Shown one piece after another: positions 10,424-63,690 of a DNA stretch of 64,000 nucleotides; within the stretch, counting starts at the first letter, position 1, and every line of letters starts with the position of its first letter. A program made the position numbers and the translations under genes. Below the pieces are notes generated by a model. It did no database searches. It was not told where the DNA came from and worked only from the letters and a program-made list of their open reading frames with translations. Origin of the DNA: Octopus vulgaris (Eukaryota); NCBI GenBank assembly GCA_951406725.2, contig OX597836.1, positions 21,142,001 to 21,206,000 on the forward strand, given 5' to 3'.

Positions 10424-10810
10424 GGCATAGCTGTGTGGTAAAAAGTTTGCTTCCCAACCACATGGTTCCAGGTTCAGTCTCACTGCACGGTATCTTGGGC
10501 AAGTGTCTTCTACTATAGCCTTGGGCTGACCAAAGCCTTATAAGAGGATTTGGTAGGCAGAAACTGAAAGAAGCCTGTTGTATGTGTGTCTTTGTGTATG
10601 TCCCTCACCACCATTTGACAACTGGTGTTGTGCTATGTGCCTGTGACTTAGTGGTTCAGCAAAAGACCCCCATTATAATAAGTACCAGGCTTAAAAAAAG
10701 GTACTGGGATCGATTCATTTGACTAAAAAGTTCTTCAAGGCGGTGCACCAGCATGGCCACAGCCTAATGACTGAAAACCACACAAGTAAAAACAAGTAAA
10801 AGCTAAAAGA
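10424..10810 (+). repeat. Major tRNA-headed SINE, older copy
   Basis: Colinear with 32458-32883 from head (ggcatagctgtgtggt) to tail (atgactgaaaac..aagtaaaa). Confidence 0.85.
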
Positions 10811-11135
10811 TATTTCTAATGAAATATGCTGGCTCCATTTCAATTTGTTTTGAAAATAATGAAGAATTTATTAAAATAACTTTAACCTGGTGTTTGGGAC
10901 ATAAATTAGCATGAAATTTTAATGGAAGGTTTTAATTTAGATCAGTTTAACCCCTTCATTACCATATTTCTCTTGAAATAGACTGATTTTATTTCAATTG
11001 ATTTTGAAAATAATGAAGAATTTAGTAATTAATTTTTATTAACCTGAGACATAAATTAACATTAAATTTTTAACAAGGAACTTGCACAATGGAACCAGAG
11101 GATGTTTTGAGCAGGTTTTTATCAAAAGAGTTAAA
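10811..11135. mobile_element. Decayed piggyBac-like MITE with internal duplication
   Basis: ttaaccccttcattacc start at about 10947, caaaagagttaa end; duplicated block tttgaaaataatgaagaattt..acataaatta at about 10849 and 11003. Confidence 0.5.
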
Positions 11136-28241: not shown

Positions 28242-29976
28242 AGAAGAAGAAAATTAAATCTTACGCGTATTGTTTCGAAACAAATGAGGTCATCACAGTT
28301 TTGAAAGATCTGTAGCAAATTGCTTACAGCTTAAAATCATCATCATAATAAATATATAATTACATAAATAAATAACTGAAAGTACGTTACAAATTAAATA
28401 AAAACATGATCAAAGTCGAAAGACAAACACAGAAATCAAATCTTTGAAATTATCGCTATGCTAAAAAAAAAAAAAAAAAAAAAAAAGCAAAATTTTTTTT
28501 TTTTAAATGTAGCCTATCTAAATCTGAAATATATGTTTTGGTTCATTTCACAAGATTCTTTACAGTGTTTTCACAATTTTAAAAATTTTATTAATGTTTT
28601 TTTATACATTTTACAAGTTATTTTTTTTTCTTTCATTTATTGTCAAATTAAAGATCTTATTTACTTGTCATTGGGAACAAAAGTATATTCAGGTGAGAGA
28701 TGGATGAAGATATGTACACACACACACACATCATCATCATCATTATAATCATAGTTTTAACATCCACTTTTCCATGCTTGCTGAGTCAGACAGAATTTGT
28801 TGAGCAGATTCTTTATGACTGGATGCTTTTCCTGTCATTAAATGGCACCTGTTTCCAGGTAATGTACCAATAAATTTACACAAAAACCTAGAAATACTCG
28901 ATTTCATGGAGAAAGAAACTGACGTGGATTCTCTAGATCCAATCTATTCATAGCACAGTGAAGATCTGTAAGATATTCCAAAAATTCTCCATCTGAGATG
29001 CTTATGTGAATAGACAACACAACCACATATTTACAAATGCCAGAAACTCGTAACTCAAAATGCCTTGTCACTTTATTAGCAACTGACTTGAACTCTCTCA
29101 AGAAGAACTTAAATAAAACTCAAAGGAAAAACAGATATATTTGAAGATTAAATATAAAAAATTACTCTAGCACTTGAGTTTTGTGGTATACACTTGACAA
29201 ACTGGATGTGCTATGAAAATAGTTCTCTAATTCTACACTATTTTTGTTTCAAATTTGTCTACATTTTAGCAGTCCAGATCTACCAGCAGATAATATCAAA
29301 GATATTCCAATCTTGAGCATTCTGTCTTTTTTATCTTTTTTTTTTTTATATATAGTCAATGTAACTAAGGGAACATTATCAGTAATGTATGATTTGAAGA
29401 AAATTTGGTTGCTATTTCTGGCAGGTCAAGGAAATGCATAGTGGCTCTATTATTGGCCCTATTAACTATGTATTTCAGTTAATTTTTAAAACAGCGAAGA
29501 ATTTAGAGTAGGGTAGTTTATAAATAAATTAAAAAAATTTGACTTCATTAAGTTAGTGTTCAGAACGTAACTAAACACATAATTCTTAAACAAATTGTAA
29601 TGTAAGGTTTTAATATAAATACATGCTTTAAAATAGACAGTTGTGTATTGTATAATTCAAGATGGTCTTGGGTTGGTACCAATAGAATTTTAAGCTATAA
29701 GATTTGTTGGACTGCATTATCCAAAATCTTCCTAATGCATCTGTGCATCAACTGTCTTAAATCATGTCTTAACATAGACAAGATATGATTTAAGATAGTT
29801 GGTCAGCATGATGCATTATAGCATCAAATAAAATGCATTGCAATATTTGTTCCAGCTCTATGTGCTCTAAGTTCAAATCTCTCCAAGTCAACCTTGCTTT
29901 TCATCATTTCAAGGTTGAAAAAATTCTGACTGATGGCCATAGTTTAGTTTAGGACATGATTTGAGAAAGATATACC

Positions 29977-31242: not shown

Positions 31243-31495
31243 TATACTGTCAACTCTATTAGTATTGCAGCGTGGAAGGTGTTTATAAGCAATTTAAGAA
31301 ACACACAAAAACAGTTAGATTCACTTCAACATTTAAATTTGATTTGCCAAAATATTTTCATCGCTTTGAGACCACAACCTGTTCACTGACAAAATTCCAT
31401 GCTGCATCTCAGAATTTTGTCAGTGAACAGGTCGTGGTCTCAAAGTGACGAAAATATTTTGGCAAATTAAATTTAAATGTTGAAGTGAATCTAAC
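31243..31495. mobile_element. Asymmetric fold-back element (84-bp arms 31314-31397 / 31412-31495, 14-nt loop), probably pLTR-derived
   Basis: Arms are near-perfect inverted complements; the right arm has a hammerhead-like topology tttgtca-GTGAACAG-GTCG(T)..(T)GAC-GAA-AATATT-T-tggcaaa. Confidence 0.7.
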
Positions 31496-38444: not shown

Positions 38445-38830
38445 CTGTCTACATGAACCAAAGGAAAGAGGCCAGTGGCTGTCTACATGAGTCAAGGAGG
38501 GCCAGTGGCCGTCTATATGAGTCAAGGAGGCCAGTGGCTATCTACATGAGTCAAGGAGGCCAGTGGCCATCTACATGAGTCAAGAAGGCCAGTGGCTGTC
38601 AACATGAGTCAAGAACCAGTGGCTATCTACATGAGTCAAGGAGGCCAGTGGCTATCTACATGAGTCAAGAACCAGTGGCTGTCTACATGAGTCAAGAAGG
38701 CCAGTGGCTGTCTACATGAGTCAAGAAGGCCAGTGGCTGTCTACATGAGTCAGGAAGGCCAGTGGCCGTCTACATGAGTCAAGGAGGTCAGTGGCTGTCT
38801 TCGTGAATCAAACAGGTCTGTGGTTATTTA
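38445..38830. repeat. 27-30-bp minisatellite, 12 core copies plus degenerate flanks
   Basis: Consensus ggccagtggctgtctacatgagtcaag(g/a)a; head-to-tail with no spacers. Confidence 0.95.
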
Positions 38831-40052
38831 CATAAACCAAGGGAGATAGTGGTCTACATGGGTTCAGGAGGCTACTCATTATTTACATGAGCTATGGTAT
38901 TCTGAACAAACAAAACTCATTTCAATAAAGTTTAATGTATCACGAGAAGAAAATTCTAGTGTTAAGACAACATTGTTGTACAAAAAAAGAGTAGCAACTA
39001 GTATAAACAGTATATTTAGGATGGTGTAATTTGATGGGGTCATTGGTTGCTTTTTCTCATAGCCAGGTGACTATATAAATGCTCCCTTGTTAGCTTGTTG
39101 TTCAATAGTTTCACAAATACATACAGCTGAGAATAATGATAATGCTGGGATTAGATGGAGTACAATTTACAGGGTGTTTCAATAGTGATGGACCTCTCTA
39201 TTTCACATAGCTTTACTTTCCAAAAGCCACATAAAACAACTAACAAAAATCCATTCTAGGTTGCCTCGTTATACTCAAATTAAAAATGCAAAGCCATTTC
39301 AAACATTTGGAAGGCATAAATTAATAGAAAATAATTAGAGAAAATATTTTACTTTAAACACAGCAATAGCTGAAAAGAAAGAACAAGATAAAAATTCTTT
39401 CTGATTTCTATAATGAAATACATCACTTGTAAGAAAAATATTAATTGCTTAAAAATAAAAAGCATCAAAAAAAATTTATTTCATTAACAATTCTAATTAA
39501 ATTAAAACTGATGAGAAATTACAGTGCAACATCCTTGATCTGGCTCTCAGCTACAAAAGGTTTTAAAACAGATTCTGTAAACCATAGCAAAGTCTTGATA
39601 TTGTAGCATCAAAATAAAATAGATTTATTCTATCAGAAGTAAATTCAATTACAAATAAATAAATTGATGGCTAATTTATTAACATGGTGTTTGTTATCGA
39701 TGTCATTTAGCTTCAAACCAGCCTTCAATGAGCAGACCTATAATCAAAAGGTATTCCACCTATGATCATCCAATCTTATTTTGAGACATAGCACATCCTA
39801 AGACCAAGTTATTGAATATATCGTTTTTGTTTTTTTTTAAAGCAGTGTAATTTGAGGGAAATTTGACTAATATTTCTAGCAAATCAAATTACTATGTAGC
39901 TGCTTGTAATTCCATATTAAGCTACAGGTAAGACTTGACCCAACAGATCTAAGATCAATGAAATTCAATTCATGATCATCCTGTTTTTGTTTTTTTTTCT
40001 CTTAAAGCAGTGTAATTTGAGGGAGATGTACTCATTATATTGAAAAGACCCA

Positions 40053-40283: not shown

Positions 40284-40342
40284 TATATTTAAAAGACCCA
40301 GCAACCACACAGAGGCCTAATGAAGAGTACTGTTACATTAAA

Positions 40343-40578
40343 TCTCTCTCTATATAAACGGCAGTTTGTCTGTGCGTGTTTCTGTGTGTCTGTTTTCTCG
40401 TACCCTCACCCTGACCACGGCTTTCAACCGATTCTGATGAAACTTGACACACACATAGCCCAATGTCATAATTCAAAACTAACGCAGCGAAAATTTTGAA
40501 AAGTTCCTCCAGTTCTGAAAAAAATCGATAAATTCGACATGGGGTCGAGAATCAAAAGAAACAAACCACAGACTGTCT
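40343..40578 (+). mobile_element. Helitron-type 5' fragment flanked by a perfect 60-bp direct duplication
   Basis: Begins A|TCTCTCTCTATATAAAC, gtctgt-rich tract, aaccgattctgatgaaact; 40284-40343 is identical to 40579-40638. Confidence 0.75.
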
Positions 40579-43138
40579 TATATTTAAAAGACCCAGCAAC
40601 CACACAGAGGCCTAATGAAGAGTACTGTTACATTAAATGTTTCAATAGATTGCACAGCTGAGTTCGGGTCTTATACCCAAAGGGTTGTCTGGACAGTAGG
40701 CCACAAAAAAGAAGAAAAAACTATACTAGTGTTCAAATGTTTCACATATTTTGAATGAATCAAGCAAAAAGAGCTGAGGAAACTAACTGCTGGTGTGTAT
40801 GTGGCAAGCCCTCAGTTCCTGTAAAAGTTGTAGAGGCGCCATCATGACATGTAGTACATTTTGGACAGTTTAAAATCTTGTAGAGCCCACCTCTCTTCAG
40901 ATCAAACCACAGCCAGTTTCTTTTAGAGAATGAGGTGGAGTGGACAGAAAAAAATTAACTCCAGTATTAAACCCTGAAAGGATGAAAAGCATAAATGGCC
41001 CCAGTAGGATTTTAAATCTCAGTGTAGAGGGCTGGAATACCACAAAACATGTTCTCTAATACTCTAATGACTCTGCCACCTCATCCAAATTGTCACCTTA
41101 ATTAGCAAGTTAAAGAATTTAAAAGTGGAATAAATTAGTTTGTTTTTGTTTTACTTTTGCTTTCTCTCTTTTTTTTCTTCTTGATGCTCTAATGATTCTG
41201 CCAGCTCACCACTCTTACTAAGAGTAACAGAAGAAATCAGTTAATGAATCACATTTCCATTTTGTTGCTCTCTTAATACTTAGTCATAATCCATCTTAAT
41301 CTTTTGACCAAACTACCAGGAACACTTTTTGGTTGGTATGTCCTGAAATATTCACAATGAATCTACAAACACTAACTAGGAAGAAAATTCAATGACAAAC
41401 TAGAAACCACAAACCATCAATATCATTAATCCCAGATGAACAAATCCGATTCTTTGACTGACATTACTAATGTTTTATATAAAGGTAATCGATCAAATGA
41501 TAGATGGTGATGATGATGATGATGACGCTAAAGCAAGAAACCATTCTTAGCTTGAAAATAGAATAAAATAAGTAAATAACTCCTATTTTCCTGTAATTCA
41601 ATTTTGGCAACTAAAGACAGTTTATCTGTACTTTACATATTTTTCCCGAAAGCAAATGAGAATTCTGATCTGACTTTGCTTTGCATTTACACTAATGTTT
41701 CAATTCCCAGACTGTCAATGCAAACACAAGATTAGCGAATTTGTTAAAAAGCACCACAGTGTTTCACACAAAGGAATCAATTAGTTTTACGTGTCAGTTT
41801 GAGAGGTTTAAGGACACTGGAATAAGTCCAAACTATGAAAGCTCAATACATTTAATACAAGCTAAATAATAGATATCAGAATTAATACTAAATACCATTT
41901 ATGTGTACATTGTATACACACACACATACACAGATAGACAGACATCCACACATACATATTGTGAGACAAACATACAACCACACACATACACTACTAACAT
42001 AGATACAGAGAGACATAAACACACAGCCTCAGAAACATAGCCACTCATACACACTTATTGATTATGGTAGCTGGATATTTGCATAAATAATTAAAAACCA
42101 ATTTTTGGCCATGAAATACTACAAATATTGACTTCATCATAGACAATATATAACTGTATATCAAAAGTTGTGAACATAGAGAGATAAAACATTCATTAAA
42201 ACCAAAATGGATTGAAAATTTATCAAGAAGATATTGTTACCAGCCCATCCTCTGTCAAACCAAGTCACAATTCAACAATAGGTCCTTTTCTTAATAGAAG
42301 CAACATCAATAACTTCATTCATCCACAAGCTAATTAATAGGGCCTCTACATACGACCTTTTAGAAACAGCAGCCAAATCACCCTTAAATCATATTCATTA
42401 GATATTAGAAAGGAAAAAAGACATGTAAGATAATGGTATCCAGGGTACCCCTTCAAGAGCTGGAATGGTCATAGCTTGAATGCTTTTAACCATGAATCTA
42501 TATAACCAGGTCTGATCCAAGACTAAATAACACCACTAATAACAACAAGCTCGTTAATCCCCAAGCACTGAACTGGGTTTCATATGATCAGAGATTAGTG
42601 TAAAAGAACCACAACCGTCATAATCTACCACAGGAGTCTCCCACCACCCAGCCACGGACCAGTACTGGGTCATGGATAATTTGGTGTCAGGCCTCACAAA
42701 AAAAAATAAATCTTTTGAGATGTATTATACATATTACAATAGAATAATTACATCTGCATTGTATATGTAATGATTAAATTATATATTATGCATTTTATTG
42801 TGTTTTGTTATGCACTTGATCCTCCAGTTCATAGGAAAATTGTCTTGCAGGAAACCAGTTTGGAGATTGCTGTGCCAACAGACAAGTCACTTGCCTCCAC
42901 GGTGCCTCCTAACACCACCACTAGAGCAAAAAGAAAAAAAACACATTCCCAGACTGTTATACTGCATCTCTTATAATAAATTCCTACAGGTGTTTTAAAT
43001 ACACAGTACGATCCTCAACAAGAGGTAAACAGGTAAAAACATTGGCTAATGTAGTCCTAGATATACAACACTTGAGAGAAGAATTGCACAGATGAGGGAG
43101 AACACTTTTGTTCAATCATAAGTCTGCTTTGTAAGAGA

Positions 43139-45711: not shown

Positions 45712-46049
45712 GTACCCGGTATGGGCCCCTATCCAGGGTTACGGAAAAGGAGACAACCTTGAAAGAAATCCGGAGTGGAGCCCTGTAGGTGGTTTAGTGT
45801 TCAACTCGACACTCTTCCGGCAGCTCCTGCAACCAAGCTGGTGCCAAACGCAATGCTCTGCATTCCTTTAGACTACATCAGCAAGGTTGAGAGAGGAATC
45901 CTAACGATTGGGCTACCCAGGATTTTCTTACATCTAGCCCAGGCCTGCGCAAAACTGGAGAGGAAACTGGAGAGGACATGAAATGTAAAAACCAGACTGG
46001 ATTAGTTTATGCGCAACTCCATTGTCTCCCGAGACAAAAAGATGCCAAC
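45712..46049 (+). repeat. GC-richer repeat fragment, possibly a LINE 5'UTR
   Basis: Abrupt GC/CpG increase between AT-rich flanks; no credible ORF; assignment from resemblance only. Confidence 0.3.
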
Positions 46050-46279
46050 ATATATACATACACACACACACATGATGGGCTTCTTTCAGTTTCCATCTGC
46101 CAAATCAACTCACAAGGCTTTGGTTAGGGCTCCATGCTATAGTAGAAGACACTTGCCCAAGATGTCACGCAGTGGGACTGTACCCAGAACCATGTGGGTG
46201 GGAAGCGAGCTTCTTGCCATACAGCCACGCCTGCAACTATATGCCCAGTTTAATAATTAACATTTTATATGTCAATAAA

Positions 46280-46740
46280 CATTGAGTTGACAGAGTTTGC
46301 CAACGACTCTCAACATCATCATGAAATTCCAAACAAAAATGGCTAACAAAGATTTCTCTGACTTCATAACCAAGTCATGAACTTAAAGAGTAAAGAGTAA
46401 TGGGAAATCAGTTTAGTGTCCAACCCAATGGCAGGAACAAAATACCTACGGAAAATCAAATTCAGAAGCTATGAGCAGGTAGTCAAATACTTTATCAATT
46501 TGGTTGCTGTTTTTTTAATTTTTGCTTTTTGCCTGTTTTGAAGGTTTTTCTCTTTCTTTCAGATTATGTATTTTGTGATCAATAGCTGTATTGGTTATAG
46601 GTTTCCAATGAGCCAATTACTGGTTTACAACATTTCTAATAGTAAGAATGATAAGAGTGTCTGTGCAACTCATGCGAAATAAATGCCACGAGGTAGTCTT
46701 AGTTTGATATGATGGTTTTTATCACCTATGTGTATACCTT
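46280..46740. repeat. Unclassified ~450-bp repeat, copy 1 (copy 2 at 50210-50645, same orientation)
   Basis: Colinear with 50210-50645, including an identical block ttttgtgatcaatagctg..tttacaacatttct. Confidence 0.85.
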
Positions 46741-47081
46741 TTTACATACATTATGAAGGAATGAAGGAAAGAAAGAAAGACACATACACACATGTAGGCA
46801 CACATACAATCAACGGGAAAGATGTTTTCTTTGAAATTACAAGGTCACAGGTTTAGGAGCTCAGTTCCCCATTAACATAGCCTAAAGACCTCAATGATAA
46901 AAGAAGCAATTATATTGAAGAACATATTTCAAATGAAATACACTGTGTGTTTCAATTAGTTTTGAACATAATAAAATATTTGGAGAAATCTAATAGCTAA
47001 CATTTTCATTATCAAGCTAAAGTTCATTAAAGATTTCTTTAGTAAGATGTAGTCTTTAGCACAAAATTGGAAAGGCATAAA

Positions 47082-47256: not shown

Positions 47257-47310
47257 TTCCCATGCCGGGAATCGAACCCGGGCCGCCTGGGTGAAAGCCA
47301 GGAATCCTGG
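47257..47310 (-). tRNA. tRNA-Glu-TTC: 5'-truncated tRNA-Glu(TTC) pseudogene
   Basis: AGGATT-CCTGG-CT TTC AC-CCAGG-CGGC-CCGGG TTCGATT CCCGG-CATGGGA-A: perfect anticodon and T arms and 3' acceptor strand; 5' acceptor strand and most of the D arm absent; no CCA. Confidence 0.9.
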
Positions 47311-47354
47311 TTCAGTTTCTTGGGGAAAATTACAGTTAAAATATTGAGTGGTTA

Positions 47355-47597: not shown

Positions 47598-47980
47598 GGT
47601 TAACATATAGCTGTCTTTGTGAGAGAGAGAAGTGGGGCAGAACAAAAGCAGGTGAGGAAGTAATATAGAGGACGATGAGAGGAAAGGAGAACAGTATTTC
47701 TTATTCCTCTCATTAAAATTCTGTCATTAAAAGAAAGATTAGTTTTAACATCTATTTTTCCATGCCTGCAATGGATTAGACAGATTTTGTTGAGGCAGAT
47801 TTTCTACAGTCAGATGCCCTTTCTGTTGCCAACCCTAACCTATTTCCAACCCATTACCAGTTATGTTTTTGTAGACTAGAAACAAAGGAAACTACTTATA
47901 TGACAGTGATACTCGTTTACAATTATCGGGATGTCAAAGCAAGGAGATAGTAATGCATATACACACACATTTTATATATA

Positions 47981-48365
47981 TATATAAAATGAAAATATAC
48001 AGCAGTTTGCAATGTTTTACCAAAAAGGAAGACGTAATTGTCACTAAATGCAACTAGGTTGTTAGAAACACCTACATTGCTAGAAATAAGAGCTAAAATG
48101 ATCTAATGCTGTTGTCAAGGCACATAACTGTATACATATATACAGACAGGGACTATAATCATCCAAAAACACCGTTTGAAAATTCCTTATACTGAATTCA
48201 GTTTCAGCAATTTCCGTTGCCTCGTTAGTAAGGACTGGCTCTACTTCAGATGATTTCAGACTTACTTCTCTGTTTTTATATATGTTTTCATCATAGAAAT
48301 CTATGGATGATTTAGTAAATCGCTAATGTGTATACATAAAATTGAAATATACAGCAGTTTGCGAT
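47981..48365 (-). mobile_element. ~352-nt direct-repeat-bounded unit with a hammerhead (retrozyme or pLTR-like)
   Basis: aaatatacagcagtttgc at 47993 and 48345; inserted in a TA/CA tract; contains the motif at 48184-48234. Confidence 0.6.
48184..48234 (-). ncRNA. Type I hammerhead ribozyme motif, one core substitution (G5A)
   Basis: TCCTTA-CTAACGA-GGCAA cggaaa TTGCT-GAA-ACTG aatt CAGT-A-TAAGGA: 6-bp stem I, 5-bp stem II, 4-bp palindromic stem III, GUA cleavage triplet. Confidence 0.8.
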
Positions 48366-48452
48366 ACACACACACAACAGGCTTCTCATATTCTGATTAG
48401 CAAATCTACTCACAAGGCTTTGATTGGCCTGGGACTATAGTAGAAGACACTA

Positions 48453-49929: not shown

Positions 49930-50209
49930 ACACATACATAAACATACATACACACATACAAAATGGGGTTGTTTTAATTTCTATCTACCAAATCAACTCA
50001 CAAGGCTTTGGTCAGCCCAGAGCTAGAAAAGACATTTTGCCCAAGATATCGTGCAGTGGGACTGAACCCAAAACCAAGTGGTTAGGAAGAAAACTCTTAA
50101 ATCACACGGCCATGCCTGCACCTAATCTTTTTTGTTTTTTGTTTTTTTGTTCTTTTTTTTTTAAGTCATCTGCACTGGTACAAGCAAGGAATCTCAACTT
50201 AGAATCAAA

Positions 50210-50645
50210 ATTGAGTTATAGACACAATTTCCCAACAATTCTCTACGTCATTACCATGAGATTCCAAACAAAAGTGGCTAATGAAGATTCTTCTTAATTT
50301 GTAACCAAGACAAGAATTTGAAAGGAAAGAGTAATGCGAAATCACTTTAGTGTACAACCCACAGATAAAACAAAATGCCTTCAGCAAATCAAATTCGGAA
50401 GCTAAGAATAGTTAGTCAAATACTTTGATCAATTTAGCCACCAATTTTTTTTTTTTTGTTTTTGCTTTTACATCATGCATTTTGTGATCAATAGCTGTAT
50501 TGGTTATAGGTTTCCAATGAGCCAATTACTGGTTTACAACATTTCTGATGGTGAGAATGATAAGAGTGTCCATGCAACTCATGCAGAATAAATACAAGGT
50601 AGTCTTAGTTTGGTATGATGGTTTTATTGCCAATGTGTGTGCCTA
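50210..50645. repeat. Unclassified ~450-bp repeat, copy 2
   Basis: Colinear with 46280-46740. Confidence 0.85.
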
Positions 50646-50892: not shown

Positions 50893-52230
50893 CATCATCA
50901 TCATTTAACGTTCATTGCCCATGTTGGCATGGTATGACCAGAGCTGGCAAGCTGCATCAGACTCCAGTCTGATTTGGCATTGCTTCTATGGCTGGATGCC
51001 CTTCCTAACACCAACCACTTTACAGAGTGTGCTAGGTGCTTTTACGTGACACACAGGTGCTTTTATGGGTGCTTTTACATGGTACCACATGGGCACTTTT
51101 ATGTAGTGTCGCACAGGCACACTTTTACATGGCATCGCACGGTCTCTTTTACATGACACCACACTGACACCTTTACATGTCGCCGTATGGGCGCTTTTAT
51201 GTGCCGCCATACAGGCACTTTTACATGGCACCACATGGGTGTTTTTACATGGTACCACATGGGCACTTTTATGTAGTGTCGCACAGGCACACTTTTACAT
51301 GACACCACACTGACACTTTTACATGCTGCCGTATACATGCTTTTATGTGCCACCATACAGGCACTTTTACATGGCACCACACAAGTGTTTTCACATGGTA
51401 CCACCATGCTTTTACATGGTACACTTCTGTTACTGAGTATGGGTCTTCTTGAGCACAGCAAGGTGCTAAGTACTTCAGTCCTTTGTCATCTCACCTGAAA
51501 GGTTCAGCTTCCTGAGGTCATTCTTCAGTACTTAATTATGTCTTCTTGAGTCTCCCACTTCCGTGTGTTTCATCCACTTTGAGAGATAAGCACTTCTTTA
51601 CGGAGCTGTCGACATCCATCCACATCTAATGACCAAACCAGCACAGTCTTCTCTCTTGCACACAGCAACCAATTCCTCTTATGCCTAACTTCTCTCTCGA
51701 AACACTGGCATTCTGTCAAACATGTACACTTACATTACATATCCAATGGAGCATTACTAACCTCGTTCTTTTCTAACCTTTGCATGTCCTCTGCATTCAG
51801 AACCCACATCTCACTACCATGTAGAATTGCTGTCCATATACATGCATCATACAATCTTCCTTTCACTCAGAGAGAGAAAACCTTTGTAGCCAACAGAGGT
51901 AACAGCTCTCTGAATTTCCTCCTTCCTATTCTTATTCTAGCTATCACACTCTCTGCATTTCCTCCCCCCACCCCTACTACTAATTTAGTCCCCTAGGTAG
52001 CAGAAATTATTTACTATCTCTAATGAGCCACCTAGGCATTTGAGAGAATCACTTTCCCAAGTCTCTAAAGTTTTTATAGATCCTGTACATCTTCCACATA
52101 TGAAAACTATCTTCTCTGACAAACTTCCAATTAACCCACTGCACCATATGTACACCATATGGAATTCCTGCCTACACCTTTCCTACAAATCGAACAGGAC
52201 CACCTACCTGAGATGGGTAGGGTCCTGCCA
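50893..52230 (-). mobile_element. 5'-truncated RTE-clade LINE: ORF C-terminus, 3'UTR with minisatellite, (GAT)n tail
   Basis: Decayed translation GRWSCSICRKGVGRNSI..FICGRC..LEIVNNFCYLGD..ARIRIGRRKFRELLPLL..KGRLYDAC..LHGSEMW..QERRLCWFGH..GSGRLKKT; ends gaacgttaaat(gat)n. Confidence 0.9.
51034..51425. repeat. ~20-25-bp minisatellite with a higher-order duplication inside the LINE 3'UTR
   Basis: Roughly 17-18 monomers of (g/a)cttttacatggcaccaca type; 51073-51243 is repeated at 51244-51390 minus one monomer. Confidence 0.9.
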
Positions 52231-54966: not shown

Positions 54967-56484
54967 TTCTTTTTTTTTTTTTTTTTTCTTCAACTTAGCA
55001 TAAAAGTCTTATGAGCCAAGTGCATGATTGGATATCAGTTCCATGTAAGAACCATTTCACTTATGTCAGTCATGTTCTTGGGAAAGGTATGAACATCACA
55101 TTTCATAATTATGTAAGAAATCAATATTATTGTTACTATTACTATTGTTATCCTAGAAAGACCAACTTTCAACTTCTGGAATTTGATAAAAAAAGTTGCA
55201 GCTCTTAGATCTGGTATTCCCCACAATCTCTCATAGTCCAAAAACTTTCATGATCTAACAGTTCCTATAATCTTGCAATTCCAGCAGTCTGACAACTCCT
55301 GTGAGTGATTCAGGTTAGCAAATGCCTTAGGGCAAATCAGCCTGTTCCCTTTTATGTTGAAAAAGTGAAAATTAACTAGGTGATAGAAAGCAATGCACCC
55401 TTTCCTCTTTATGGCTATTTTACTGTTCACTTTATTTTTTGTGCTATATTCTACATACTATGCATGTACTTTTAACTCTCATTGTTATATTTTTAACTCA
55501 ACTTATTGCTATATTCTGCATACGCTTTCTCTTTTCCAGTGAGTTGTATTGCACCTGAGTACTGCATTCAATAAGCCCATTAGTATTAAGACAGCAAGCT
55601 GGCAGAATCATTAATGCATCAGACCAAATATTTAGAGGATATTTCTTCCAGCTCTTTATATTTTATGCTCAAATTTTGCAAAGCTCAACTTCGCCTTTCA
55701 TCCTTTGGAGGTCAATAAAACAAGTACCAGTTGAACACTGGGATCAATGTAATCAACTTACTCCCTTCCCTAAAAATTTGCCAAGATTTCTTTTAATGCC
55801 AAAATTAGAAAAAAATTATGATTAAAATAAGTAATGAGACTGAAATAAGTAGTGAAAAGTTGTCAGTATGATCAACTAAAATACTTGACGGCAATGCTCT
55901 AGCATGGCCACAGTCCACTGACTGAAACTAGTAGAAGAGTAAAAGAAATAAAATAGTTAACATGACAGTCACCTTGTCTATAGAAGGTTCCCACAAAACC
56001 TGAAACAATACAGTGCATATTTATATAAAAGGTTGTCAGAGGACTTGATTATCGCTAAGTAAAAATAACATTGTGAATAGCTAAAAAAAATACCATATCA
56101 AGATAAGGTTGAGAAAACTTCATTTCATGCATACATAATGACACCAGAAAATTGATTGAACAAAAAAAAAAAGACAACAAAACAAAGGACATTAACTAGA
56201 GATAATATCATTCCATAAAATTAAATAGAGCATTATCTTGTCTGAAAATAGTGTTTAAAAGTTAATATCTACCTTTAATTTAGATAGTAAACATTAAGTT
56301 TCACACAAATAAAATGGATTAAAGTTCTTTTTATGCATCATTATCGCCATCATGGTTTTAATGTCCACTTTTATTCCTGCTTGCATAAGTCAGACAGAAT
56401 ATCTTGAGGCAGATTTTGTATGATTGGATGCCCTTCCTGTTACCAACCCTCACCAGTTTCCAGGCAAGATGCTCCAAACCACAT

Positions 56485-56950
56485 AGGCAAGTTTGACATG
56501 AAACTAGAATGTTTTGTGTCTGTTGTGCGAGCCATATGCCAGAAATATGTCCCAAAGCAGAAGGCCAAAACAAATAAGAACAAGATTCCAAAGGAGAGGA
56601 AGATCCTCATGAGACGACGGACGAAGGTTGCAAATCGACTCAACCAACATCCCAAAAGTAGCGAAAGGTCCCGCCTAAAAACAACACTGATGGAGAGTGA
56701 TAAAAGGCTGCAACAATCCTATGTGAGGGAGAAAGCAGACAAAGAAGCCTGGGTTATAAAAAACATTAAATCAAACCCAAAGGCCTTCTTTTATTACGCG
56801 AAAGGAACAGCCTCAGTACACTGCAAGATAGGACCCATCTTCCAAAAGGATGGCTCCCTCACAGATAGTCCAATGAGGATCAGTGAGGTACTGAATGACC
56901 AGTTCAAAAGTGTCTTTACCACCCCGTTGGAACACAGACAAGTGAACGAA
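56485..56950 (+). mobile_element. CR1/L2-group LINE ORF2 fragment (linker between endonuclease and RT)
   Basis: Open frame ..ICQKYVPKQKAKTNKNKIPKERKILMRRR..IKNIKSNPKAFFYYAK..IGPIFQKDGSLTDSPMRISEVLNDQFKSVFT; NPKAF and LNxQFxSVFT motifs; both ORF ends lie in unrelated repeat remnants. Confidence 0.8.
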
Positions 56951-57448
56951 CAACTGACTTGGATCTTGGGGGAACATCTAACCCATACCACCATGGAAAG
57001 GAGACATAAAATGATAGTGATGATATGCTAGTGAGTGTGTGCTCTTTTATGTGTTTTAAGCCATATGACTGCTGTCAAACTGGAGTACATGCATACACTC
57101 AAGAAATATTCTTTCATTAGTCAAACTGAGACATACTGGGGGTTCACCTTAAAAGGTAGTGGTACACATATGTTCCATTAAGTTTGGTAATTATTTTTGC
57201 TACATTCTATTTTTCACACTGCAATATTACAGAACAAACACAGACATCATTCTGTTTTCAAGCAATTGCAAGCAAAGATAAACACATTCACATACAAACG
57301 TCTCAGCAGTTTCCATCAACCAATTTCACTCACAAGACAGTAGAGAACACTTGCCCAAGGTGCTATGCAATGGAACTGAACCCAAGACCACATTGTTGTA
57401 AAGTGAATTTCCTAACCACACAGCCATGTCTTTGCATATGAGAAATAT

Positions 57449-62500: not shown

Positions 62501-63690
62501 ACACACAACCCCAAGGTACCCTGATGCACCAAAGACAAGTGAGTGAGTTTTTTCTTTTAGCCTGCAACTACCTAAGCTCATTTGGCTGTGCCAATTTTAT
62601 CCAAACTCACCTAACTTTCAAAAAATTTTCTGGGGGTGCTGTACCTCCTGTGCCAAATTTAGCCTAATTCACCAAATCTAATAAAATTTGCTGGGGAAGG
62701 GGTGGGTGCAGAACTTCCTCCTCTATCCTCACCTTCATTTTCATGCAGTATTTGAAGAAGCTGAAGGAGGTTATGTGAAAACTAAATCTAAGAAGTTACG
62801 TCAACAGTTGTCAAATGGCACAATGTATATATTTAAAAGTATAATTTATGACTTCAGAAAATACATATTAATAAGTCTTGAAAAACCTGCTATATTACTC
62901 ATAACTTTGTTATATGCAAATACATGACTAATACAACAAGGTAGGAAATAGTTTTCAGGAGTAGCAGAACCATTAAAGCATCAGGTAAAATTCCTTGCCA
63001 TATGTATTACAACTGTTTACATTCAGAGTTCAAATTCTGCCTATTTGAGGTTTTGTGCCTATGTACGATATCTGTTTTGATTTTACCTAAACTGTTTGCA
63101 AAGTGCATCAGTTTGATGTCACCATTTCAATGTCCACTTTTCCATGCTTCCATGGGTCAGATGGCATTTATCATGCTTGATTTTCTAAGACTATGTCCTC
63201 CCTATTGACAATCCTCACCTGTTTACAAGCAAACTAATATATCCCCATGGCCAGATATGTTTCCACAGAATATTGGAAATTAATAACATTACTTGTATGA
63301 TAGTGATGCTCATTTGCAATTATCATGCAACAACAGGCTTGTTTGAGTTTTCGTCTACCCAATCTATTCACAAGGTTTTTGGTTGGCCTGAGGCTGCAGC
63401 AGAAGACACAAGCTCAAGATGCCATACAGTGGGATTGAACTTGAAACTATGAGCTTGGAAAGCAGACTTCTTAACCACACACACACACACACACACCACA
63501 TACATCACAACCTCATCGGGAAAGAAAAGGGTAAAGAATTAGAGGCGTGGGGACATTTTTTACCTAGTATTCCTGTTTTGCACAATGAGAACAATATTCC
63601 GAAAGAATATTTTCCCTCCCCCCCAATTTTTTTCTTTAGCATTTTTCATCCCCCTACCCCCGCTCAATTCTGCGAGTACTACAACATTAA

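Follow-up and report, generated by a model that had tools for sequence, protein, structure and literature searches.

A probable old hammerhead retrozyme insertion, predicted to be inactive, in a 64-kb window of Octopus vulgaris DNA

The window, that is the whole 64-kb stretch of DNA that was analysed, consists of AT-rich animal DNA, rich in microsatellites and interspersed repeats, and its abundant SINE-like repeats resemble those of Octopus. It probably harbours a single, old and dead insertion from a non-coding, non-autonomous hammerhead retroelement family (non-LTR retrozymes) with a period of about 350 nt, for which we propose a Penelope-like cycle. The best reading of the element is that of a dead 1.09-mer of such a family, and this family is very probably one of the metazoan non-LTR retrozymes. 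Retrozymes of this kind are known from mussels, corals and amphibians. The finding adds a retrozyme family in a probable octopus genome; its interest is modest, as molluscs and many other animals are known to possess hammerhead repeats of similar size and the copy in the window is a dead monomer. Its anatomy is a clean example of a template other than a ribozyme-cut linear monomer, and the family is a test case for a possible mobilisation of animal retrozymes by Penelope-like proteins, and for the signal that would be used.

Anatomy of the insertion and its host site

The following features were delimited in the insertion and its flanks (positions are those of the window):

47757..47958, plus strand: host interspersed repeat, forming the left part of the composite that the unit interrupts (matched at 12 further places in the window; very high contig depth)
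47959..47969, plus strand: candidate 11-nt target-site duplication, left copy, inside the microsatellite (exact 11-nt repeat)
47968..47991, no strand: palindrome of 24 nt at the 3' junction (matches itself at 100% over 24 nt; hairpin z -0.5)
47970..48363, minus strand: whole insertion, about 394 bp, comprising 1.09 monomers and some 9 further nt at the 3' end (bounded by the two 11-nt repeats; host paralogues run across the site)
47979..48010, minus strand: 3' copy of the 32-nt terminal redundancy (repeat alignment)
48011..48362, minus strand: non-coding monomer, one 352-nt period, 33% GC (repeat offset; contigs that pass 48362 into sequence like 48011-48034 and then 48035 onward)
48050..48108, minus strand: most widely shared segment, with a stem-loop (48080-48050), candidate cis-signal (fold, with a local z of only -0.74; contig depth)
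48184..48234, minus strand: type I hammerhead motif, degenerate, with A5 and G-U at 10.1-11.1 (fold and descriptor scoring; G5 in sister contigs; G5-bearing frame of the protein match P0002)
48191..48202, minus strand: stem III region, a perfect 12-nt palindrome in the window copy (self-duplex -15.4 kcal/mol)
48331..48362, minus strand: 5' copy, in the hammerhead sense, of the 32-nt terminal redundancy (repeat alignment; multi-copy in contigs)
48364..48374, plus strand: candidate 11-nt target-site duplication, right copy (exact 11-nt repeat)
48375..48450, plus strand: host SINE-like repeat, forming the right part of the same composite and beginning at a (CA)n/(TA)n run (matched at 18 further places in the window)

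The two copies of the terminal redundancy, 47979-48010 and 48331-48362, are identical at 29 of 32 positions with an offset of 352 nt, and at 31 of 35 when three more columns are included. This is in agreement with the first-pass annotation made from the sequence alone, which had reported direct repeats of about 32 bp at a distance of 352 nt. The same annotation had placed the unit at 47981..48365; the repeat-bracketed unit is real, but the element reaches to about 47970. In the hammerhead sense, the copy starts 173 nt upstream of the predicted cut site and ends about 211 nt downstream of it, which equals one period plus 32 nt. About 9 nt at its 3' end belong to neither repeat and complete the 24-nt palindrome 47968-47991, which could have arisen from fold-back at priming or from TA expansion. 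Comparison of the window with itself revealed no second copy of the 352-nt unit in the 64 kb, and three other isolated direct repeats with at least 31 of 35 matches at a spacing of 150-500 nt were present.

The unit interrupts a (CA)n/(TA)n linker between the two parts of a host composite repeat. The exact 11-nt repeat at both ends of the insertion sits in this run and is hence ambiguous as a candidate duplication. Empty paralogous host sites, without the unit, were found in the window at 19303-19203 and 63244-63409 and also in contigs, and the 32-mer is absent from them. An empty allele of the exact insertion locus was not found among the 15 of 302 joints listed.

The description of the unit as non-coding was confirmed, as no Pfam family was found for its sole open frame of at least 70 aa. 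This frame is 80 aa long; one protein search with it retrieved nothing, and another gave two matches among 1.84 billion protein representatives. P0001, a repetitive tapeworm protein, was rejected as a relative, and P0002 is a 91-aa frame called on three contigs and 41% identical to the frame of the unit. Over the translated hammerhead core and stem II, P0002 reads TDEATEIAE and the window TNEATEIAE, and from this alignment we take P0002 to be a diverged sister copy in translation, in which G5 is present. Residues 1-17 of P0002 match 48023-47976 and residues 10-90 match 48349-48110, a double match that fits a monomer junction weakly, with about four residues outside the repeat and an E-value of 0.006 on the 551-nt region. 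The search with P0002 as query returned no further or longer relatives among the proteins, which is weak evidence, and the protein searches with both frames revealed no autonomous partner, reverse transcriptase (RT) or GIY-YIG protein.

For the window as a whole, 125 out of 137 frames of at least 70 aa were scanned with Pfam, the twelve low-complexity ones being dropped. Among the scanned frames there was no match to RT or GIY-YIG and no convincing Pfam family, and four had matches below curated cut-offs. Exact-pattern scans retrieved nothing in viral contigs or metagenome contigs; the 18-nt viral matches L001 and L002 extend to only 21 nt and were taken as chance.

The hammerhead motif and its sister copies

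The hammerhead lies on the minus strand, for which the first-pass annotation had given no indication, from 48234 to 48184, with stem I open (type I). Stem I comprises 6 bp, 48234-48229 being paired with 48189-48184. The first box (48228-48222) reads CUAACGA, with an A at 48226 instead of G5. Stem II starts directly after A9 and possesses 5 bp, a 6-nt loop and a closing pair G10.1-U11.1 in place of the usual G-C. A GAAA at 48205-48202 is located between stem II and stem III, helix III consists of A15.1-U16.1 and 3 bp, and the GUA triplet places the predicted cut between 48190 and 48189. The three-stem type I hammerhead with a GUA site described by the first-pass annotation was thus recovered, and it is also, as claimed there, the best hammerhead of the window, with a score of 13 versus 8 for the runner-up on an ad hoc scale applied to the whole 64 kb. 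The statement that it is one base from canonical holds for G5A, but the pair 10.1-11.1 departs as well. No other convincing hammerhead was detected in the 64-kb window under relaxed descriptors; the second-best string, within 10810-11070, was discarded for its weak 2-bp stem II.

G5A is a standard inactivating change of the hammerhead core. As described for a different hammerhead, the change abolishes cleavage (PMC4027429). By analogy, and with a single motif only, the window copy should be catalytically dead. With a single broken ribozyme, it would be unable to release a monomer on its own.

Taken alone, the motif is only modestly above chance, and the sequence by itself is suggestive. Three out of 100 simulated windows (second-order Markov) reached an ad hoc hammerhead score of at least 13, the three other isolated direct repeats of the window are of comparable quality and spacing, and Rfam called no hammerhead family here, even at E-values up to 10 on the 551-nt stretch. 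We take the motif as real because of the contig family data. When the 51 nt are folded in isolation, the active hammerhead is the structure of lowest energy (-9.0 kcal/mol, ensemble probability 0.09), and in contexts of at least 68 nt it is not the predicted minimum-energy fold. The linear unit folds modestly better than shuffled sequences (z -1.83, 5 of 100 as low), and the monomer folded as a circle gave z = -3.25 (1 of 100 as low). Rfam matches to C/D snoRNAs at 48196-48303 were taken as chance, with E-values of 0.29-6.5, all far below gathering scores; C/D-box-like words at 48211-48303 (minus strand), upstream of the hammerhead, are behind these weak matches.

Contigs of four out of 24 sequencing runs were aligned to 47650-48440 at 80% likeness, namely the DNA runs X2, X6 and X11, which carry three organism labels, and the presumed RNA run X18. 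For these contigs, the listings give 40, 15, 24 and 32 entries out of 337 difference rows, 302 joints, 1,488 loose ends and 23,229 pieces, respectively. The unit is multi-copy, with depths of 228 to about 90,000 in bins 48001-48351 against about 12 in the unique flank (X2 and X11), these values being summed contig depth and not copy number.

G5 is carried by 52, 43 and 46 sister contigs in the three DNA runs, corresponding to 1712/1824, 724/748 and 590/618 of the depth (about 94-97%). Position 48224 differs from the window copy in 49, 43 and 38 contigs, which have U at position 7, and the other core positions showed no difference among the 40 of 337 rows listed. The hammerhead core of the family is CUGAUGA; CUGACGA was rejected as the family core, and the word CTGACGA, which the first-pass annotation had proposed as the search core for sister copies, does not represent them. 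The 12-nt palindromic stem III noted there is perfect in the window copy, but 48196 varies among sister copies, differing in 34, 33 and 36 contigs (52-70% of depth), and the palindrome was therefore rejected as a constant of the family. In the window copy it could, as modelled, pair with a second copy as a dimer fold.

End-to-start joints were present among the contigs. The joint 48362 to 48035 was found in X2 and in X6, in at least four contigs of each; the shorter side measures 65 and 61 letters, which is longer than the 32-nt repeat. The joint 48343 to 48035 was found in at least one contig of each of the three DNA runs. Letters inside these joints resemble window positions 48011-48034. Over all three DNA runs, end-to-start contigs span from 48343-48366 back to 48035-48070 and hold more than one period. 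Head-to-tail junctions thus exist in DNA, and the 32-mer is the overlap of successive periods and not host sequence. The first-pass annotation had named, as grounds to abandon its reading, a 32-bp repeat that is unique host sequence, i.e. a long target-site duplication, together with a lack of permuted or tandem copies. The check did not refute the reading: the repeat proved to be multi-copy and is missing from the empty paralogues, end-to-start contigs occur in all three DNA runs, and a long host duplication was rejected as its origin, since the repeat belongs to the element. A full dimer or tandem pair of complete hammerheads was found neither in the window nor among the short-read contigs listed.

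At 23 of the 31 listed positions within the unit, the window copy departs from the majority of X2 contigs, and it is for this reason considered old. Sister copies are mostly less than 95% alike. One contig (X6 record 31) is nearly identical to the window copy, with 4 differences in 226 letters, and to judge from this likeness is probably its orthologue. In X18, the hammerhead region was present in one contig among those listed, with a depth of 2.4, the same as the flank and unlike the abundant RNAs of known retrozymes; contigs do not show strand, level or circularity. The end-to-start joint in X18 was rejected as proof of an RNA circle, as the joint also stands in the DNA runs.

Proposed cycle, related systems and alternative explanations

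The first-pass annotation had explained the unit as a copy, a little over one monomer long, of a circular or tandem RNA template, and this is still the best reading; the RNA template, its circularisation and its cleavage are steps that we infer. The cycle that we propose would begin with transcription of a genomic locus that holds head-to-tail units with intact ribozymes. As in known retrozymes, successive type I hammerheads would excise a monomer, which would be closed by ligation into a circle, or the multimer would stay uncut. A Penelope-like RT/GIY-YIG protein would nick an AT-rich (TA)n/(CA)n target. Priming of reverse transcription would take place within the unit, some 210 nt downstream of the cleavage site, and synthesis would have begun at the 3' redundancy copy (47979..48010). 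As the anatomy shows, copying passes the cleavage site and continues 32 nt beyond one full period. The cDNA would then be integrated, with the candidate duplication of about 11 nt of target. Later decay is visible as G5A, at least 23 positions off the sister majority and three differences between the element's own repeats. Neither end of the insertion is at the GUA cut site, so that the template, if it was RNA, would be a circle or an uncut multimer, and not a ribozyme-cut linear monomer, because such a monomer would begin and end at that site.

By analogy with described systems, a Penelope-like reverse transcriptase probably moved the family. Penelope-like elements (PLEs) are described as proposed partners of animal retrozymes (PMC7229834; bioRxiv 10.64898/2026.07.22.740005), and as favouring microsatellite targets and leaving a 30-40-bp terminal extension (PMC8557442). 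The anole element PAc is reported to nick AT-rich DNA and to start reverse transcription inside its RNA, with uncut RNA as main substrate (PMC11167929). For O. vulgaris, recently active Penelope-like families are reported, with 31 families and 336 insertions (PMC13282606). Eight out of nine predicted Xenopus retrozyme dimers are reported to have failed to cleave in vitro (bioRxiv 10.64898/2026.07.22.740005).

Similar to metazoan non-LTR retrozymes as described in PMC7229834 and PMC4209133, the unit is about 350 nt long and non-coding, with a GC content under 45% and no LTR-type layout. At 352 nt and 33% GC, it lies within the 150-450 bp and GC under 50% that define non-LTR retrozymes. As in their descriptions, the unit also possesses a type I hammerhead with a 6-bp helix I, is multi-copy with head-to-tail junctions, and has an ambiguous 11-nt candidate, in the microsatellite, for their target duplication of more than 4 bp. 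An intact type I core is found in the family, with G5, and not in the window copy, with A5. Compared by description, the window element is unlike metazoan non-LTR retrozymes in being a lone 1.09-mer with a dead core, and differs from them in its 5-bp helix II with a G-U closing pair and in a helix III longer than the usual 1-2 bp. Retrozyme repeats of Mytilus galloprovincialis are given as 350-390 bp (Cervera and de la Pena 2020, PMC7229834), and that work describes a mussel family without most of the loop 1-loop 2 tertiary-contact nucleotides.

The window element resembles the monomer derivatives described by Li, Clavereau and Pollet 2026 (bioRxiv 10.64898/2026.07.22.740005), which are dispersed solo monomers beside tandem forms; consensus lengths in several of their classes, around 300-360 bp, are comparable to the 352-nt unit. 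Their monomers are presented as non-autonomous PLEs. In their usage, active means two consecutive units with complete hammerheads, which the window locus does not possess. The sample described there comprises 31 vertebrates, three insects and one coral.

Similar to the PLE pseudo-LTR (PMC4209133, PMC8557442), the unit possesses a type I hammerhead, a palindromic helix III region and a putative terminal extension of 30-40 nt; the 32-nt redundancy fits in length the 30-40-bp PLE tail described by Craig et al. 2021 (PMC8557442). As described for PLEs (PMC8557442; Frangieh et al. 2024, PMC11167929), the target is AT-rich or microsatellite DNA and copying would have started inside the RNA, not at the cleavage site. 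Unlike an autonomous PLE, the unit has no RT/GIY-YIG ORF, a short period and canonical instead of minimal hammerhead geometry; the minimal PLE hammerhead is described with an extra base after CUGANGA, a long helix II and no true helix III (Cervera and de la Pena 2014, PMC4209133). By description, the Sm-alpha repeats of Schistosoma and the satellite repeats of newts (PMC6155905, PMC7229834) share with the unit the type I hammerhead, the short, interspersed or tandem non-coding repeats and a dimer-capable helix III, and belong to other hosts with other sequences. Plant LTR retrozymes are described with type III hammerheads in paired LTRs, a 4-bp target duplication and GC over 55% (PMC7229834, PMC7761336), unlike the window unit with its single type I motif and 33% GC.

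The unit could instead be a 5'-truncated autonomous PLE, of which one pseudo-LTR with a hammerhead and the 30-40-bp tail remain, and not a member of a separate non-coding family. Most PLE insertions are described as 5'-truncated with one terminal repeat kept (bioRxiv 10.64898/2026.07.22.740005), the 32 nt match the tail length, and the target is a microsatellite. Several long contigs align only in part (e.g. X6 record 30, 219 of 1,450 letters) and could hide ORF flanks. We consider this origin unlikely, however, as the end-to-start contigs indicate a period of about 350 nt, which is too short to accommodate an ORF, none of the frames searched looks like RT or GIY-YIG, and the motif departs from the minimal PLE consensus in its real helix III and in the absence of the extra base that follows CUGANGA there.

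Dispersal of a hammerhead satellite unit as DNA, by extrachromosomal circle, unequal exchange or rolling-circle capture and with no RNA step for the window copy, is quite improbable in our view. A one-period DNA circle would equally yield a permuted copy with terminal overlap, the RNA circle and the cleavage of the unit belong to the proposed cycle only, and DNA amplification of retrozyme units is discussed in the literature (bioRxiv 10.64898/2026.07.22.740005). Against it, the insertion is clean, with a candidate target duplication in a microsatellite, and G5 is kept in about 94-97% of sister depth among copies mostly less than 95% alike, which suggests selection at the RNA level, although this retention could alternatively reflect descent from one master copy. 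It would be very surprising if the motif were a chance hammerhead-like string in an unrelated insertion bracketed by a long host target duplication. Such a string is conceivable from the three simulated windows that scored as high and from the silence of Rfam, and a perfect 60-bp bracket (40284-40343 and 40579-40638) surrounds a further insertion in the window. Nonetheless, sister copies hold the canonical base exactly where the window copy departs, and the repeat is missing from the empty host paralogues and internal to the junction contigs. The insertion is thus preferably read as a retrozyme copy of 1.09 monomers.

The shared segment and other features of the window

Within the retrozyme unit, summed contig depth at about 48055-48108 (48082-48108) reaches 25-68 times the value of the hammerhead bins in the three DNA runs, a ratio that does not represent copy number. 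Joints that skip about 48093-48277 were found in all three DNA runs, among the joints listed, and some contigs pass from the shared segment on to 48277-48297. Several contigs in X2, X6, X11 and X18 match both sides of the hammerhead-bearing middle (48092-48297) and not the middle itself. Judging from these alignments, contigs that skip the hammerhead middle may represent subfamilies with a diverged or missing ribozyme segment.

The segment 48055-48108 could, with rather low probability, be a cis-signal common to a larger set of related units, or else a piece in common with an unrelated abundant repeat. In PMC7761336, animal retrozymes are said to lack a conserved motif for recognition by their partner. 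If true, the reading as a cis-signal would supply this missing motif, and the ribozyme would be a dispensable passenger. A literature search on hammerheads and retrozymes in octopus and cephalopods, which covered for the most part freely accessible main texts, retrieved no report of a cephalopod retrozyme, and the family may already be catalogued in repeat databases. We regard it as speculative and rather doubtful that this is the first described cephalopod retrozyme family, with the 32-nt redundancy as a true Penelope tail whose position is fixed in the family and 48050-48108 as a cis-signal for the Penelope RT in a much larger set of units, in which the hammerhead is diverged or missing.

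Other repeats were present in the window. The perfect 60-bp direct repeat at 40284-40343 and 40579-40638 brackets a 235-bp stretch, and the whole (40284-40638) has the appearance of a young insertion whose flank duplication is unusually long; its inner part may be akin to helentron-associated non-autonomous elements. The hammerhead insertion lies between two collinear duplicates, 46048-46591 and 49936-50500, which are about 3.9 kb apart and 78-90% identical in blocks. A degenerate tRNA-like sequence at 47257-47325 (minus strand; Rfam tRNA, 32.7 bits with a gathering score of 29) is probably a pseudogene or SINE head. A long near-perfect inverted repeat at 31322-31487 has the form of a MITE-like hairpin, with an Rfam match to MIR6140 below the gathering score. 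The window also possesses minisatellites at 38468-38811 (29-nt period) and 51065-51422 (24-nt period), and a 207-aa open frame without Pfam match at 56408-57031 (plus strand), the later part of which presumably resembles a LINE ORF2 fragment. A degenerate tandem duplication of 154 nt occupies 10810-11070, and pieces related to it are present at 29471-29620 and 46921-46981. A 45-bp direct repeat with a spacing of 165 nt and 87% identity was found at 39823-40027.
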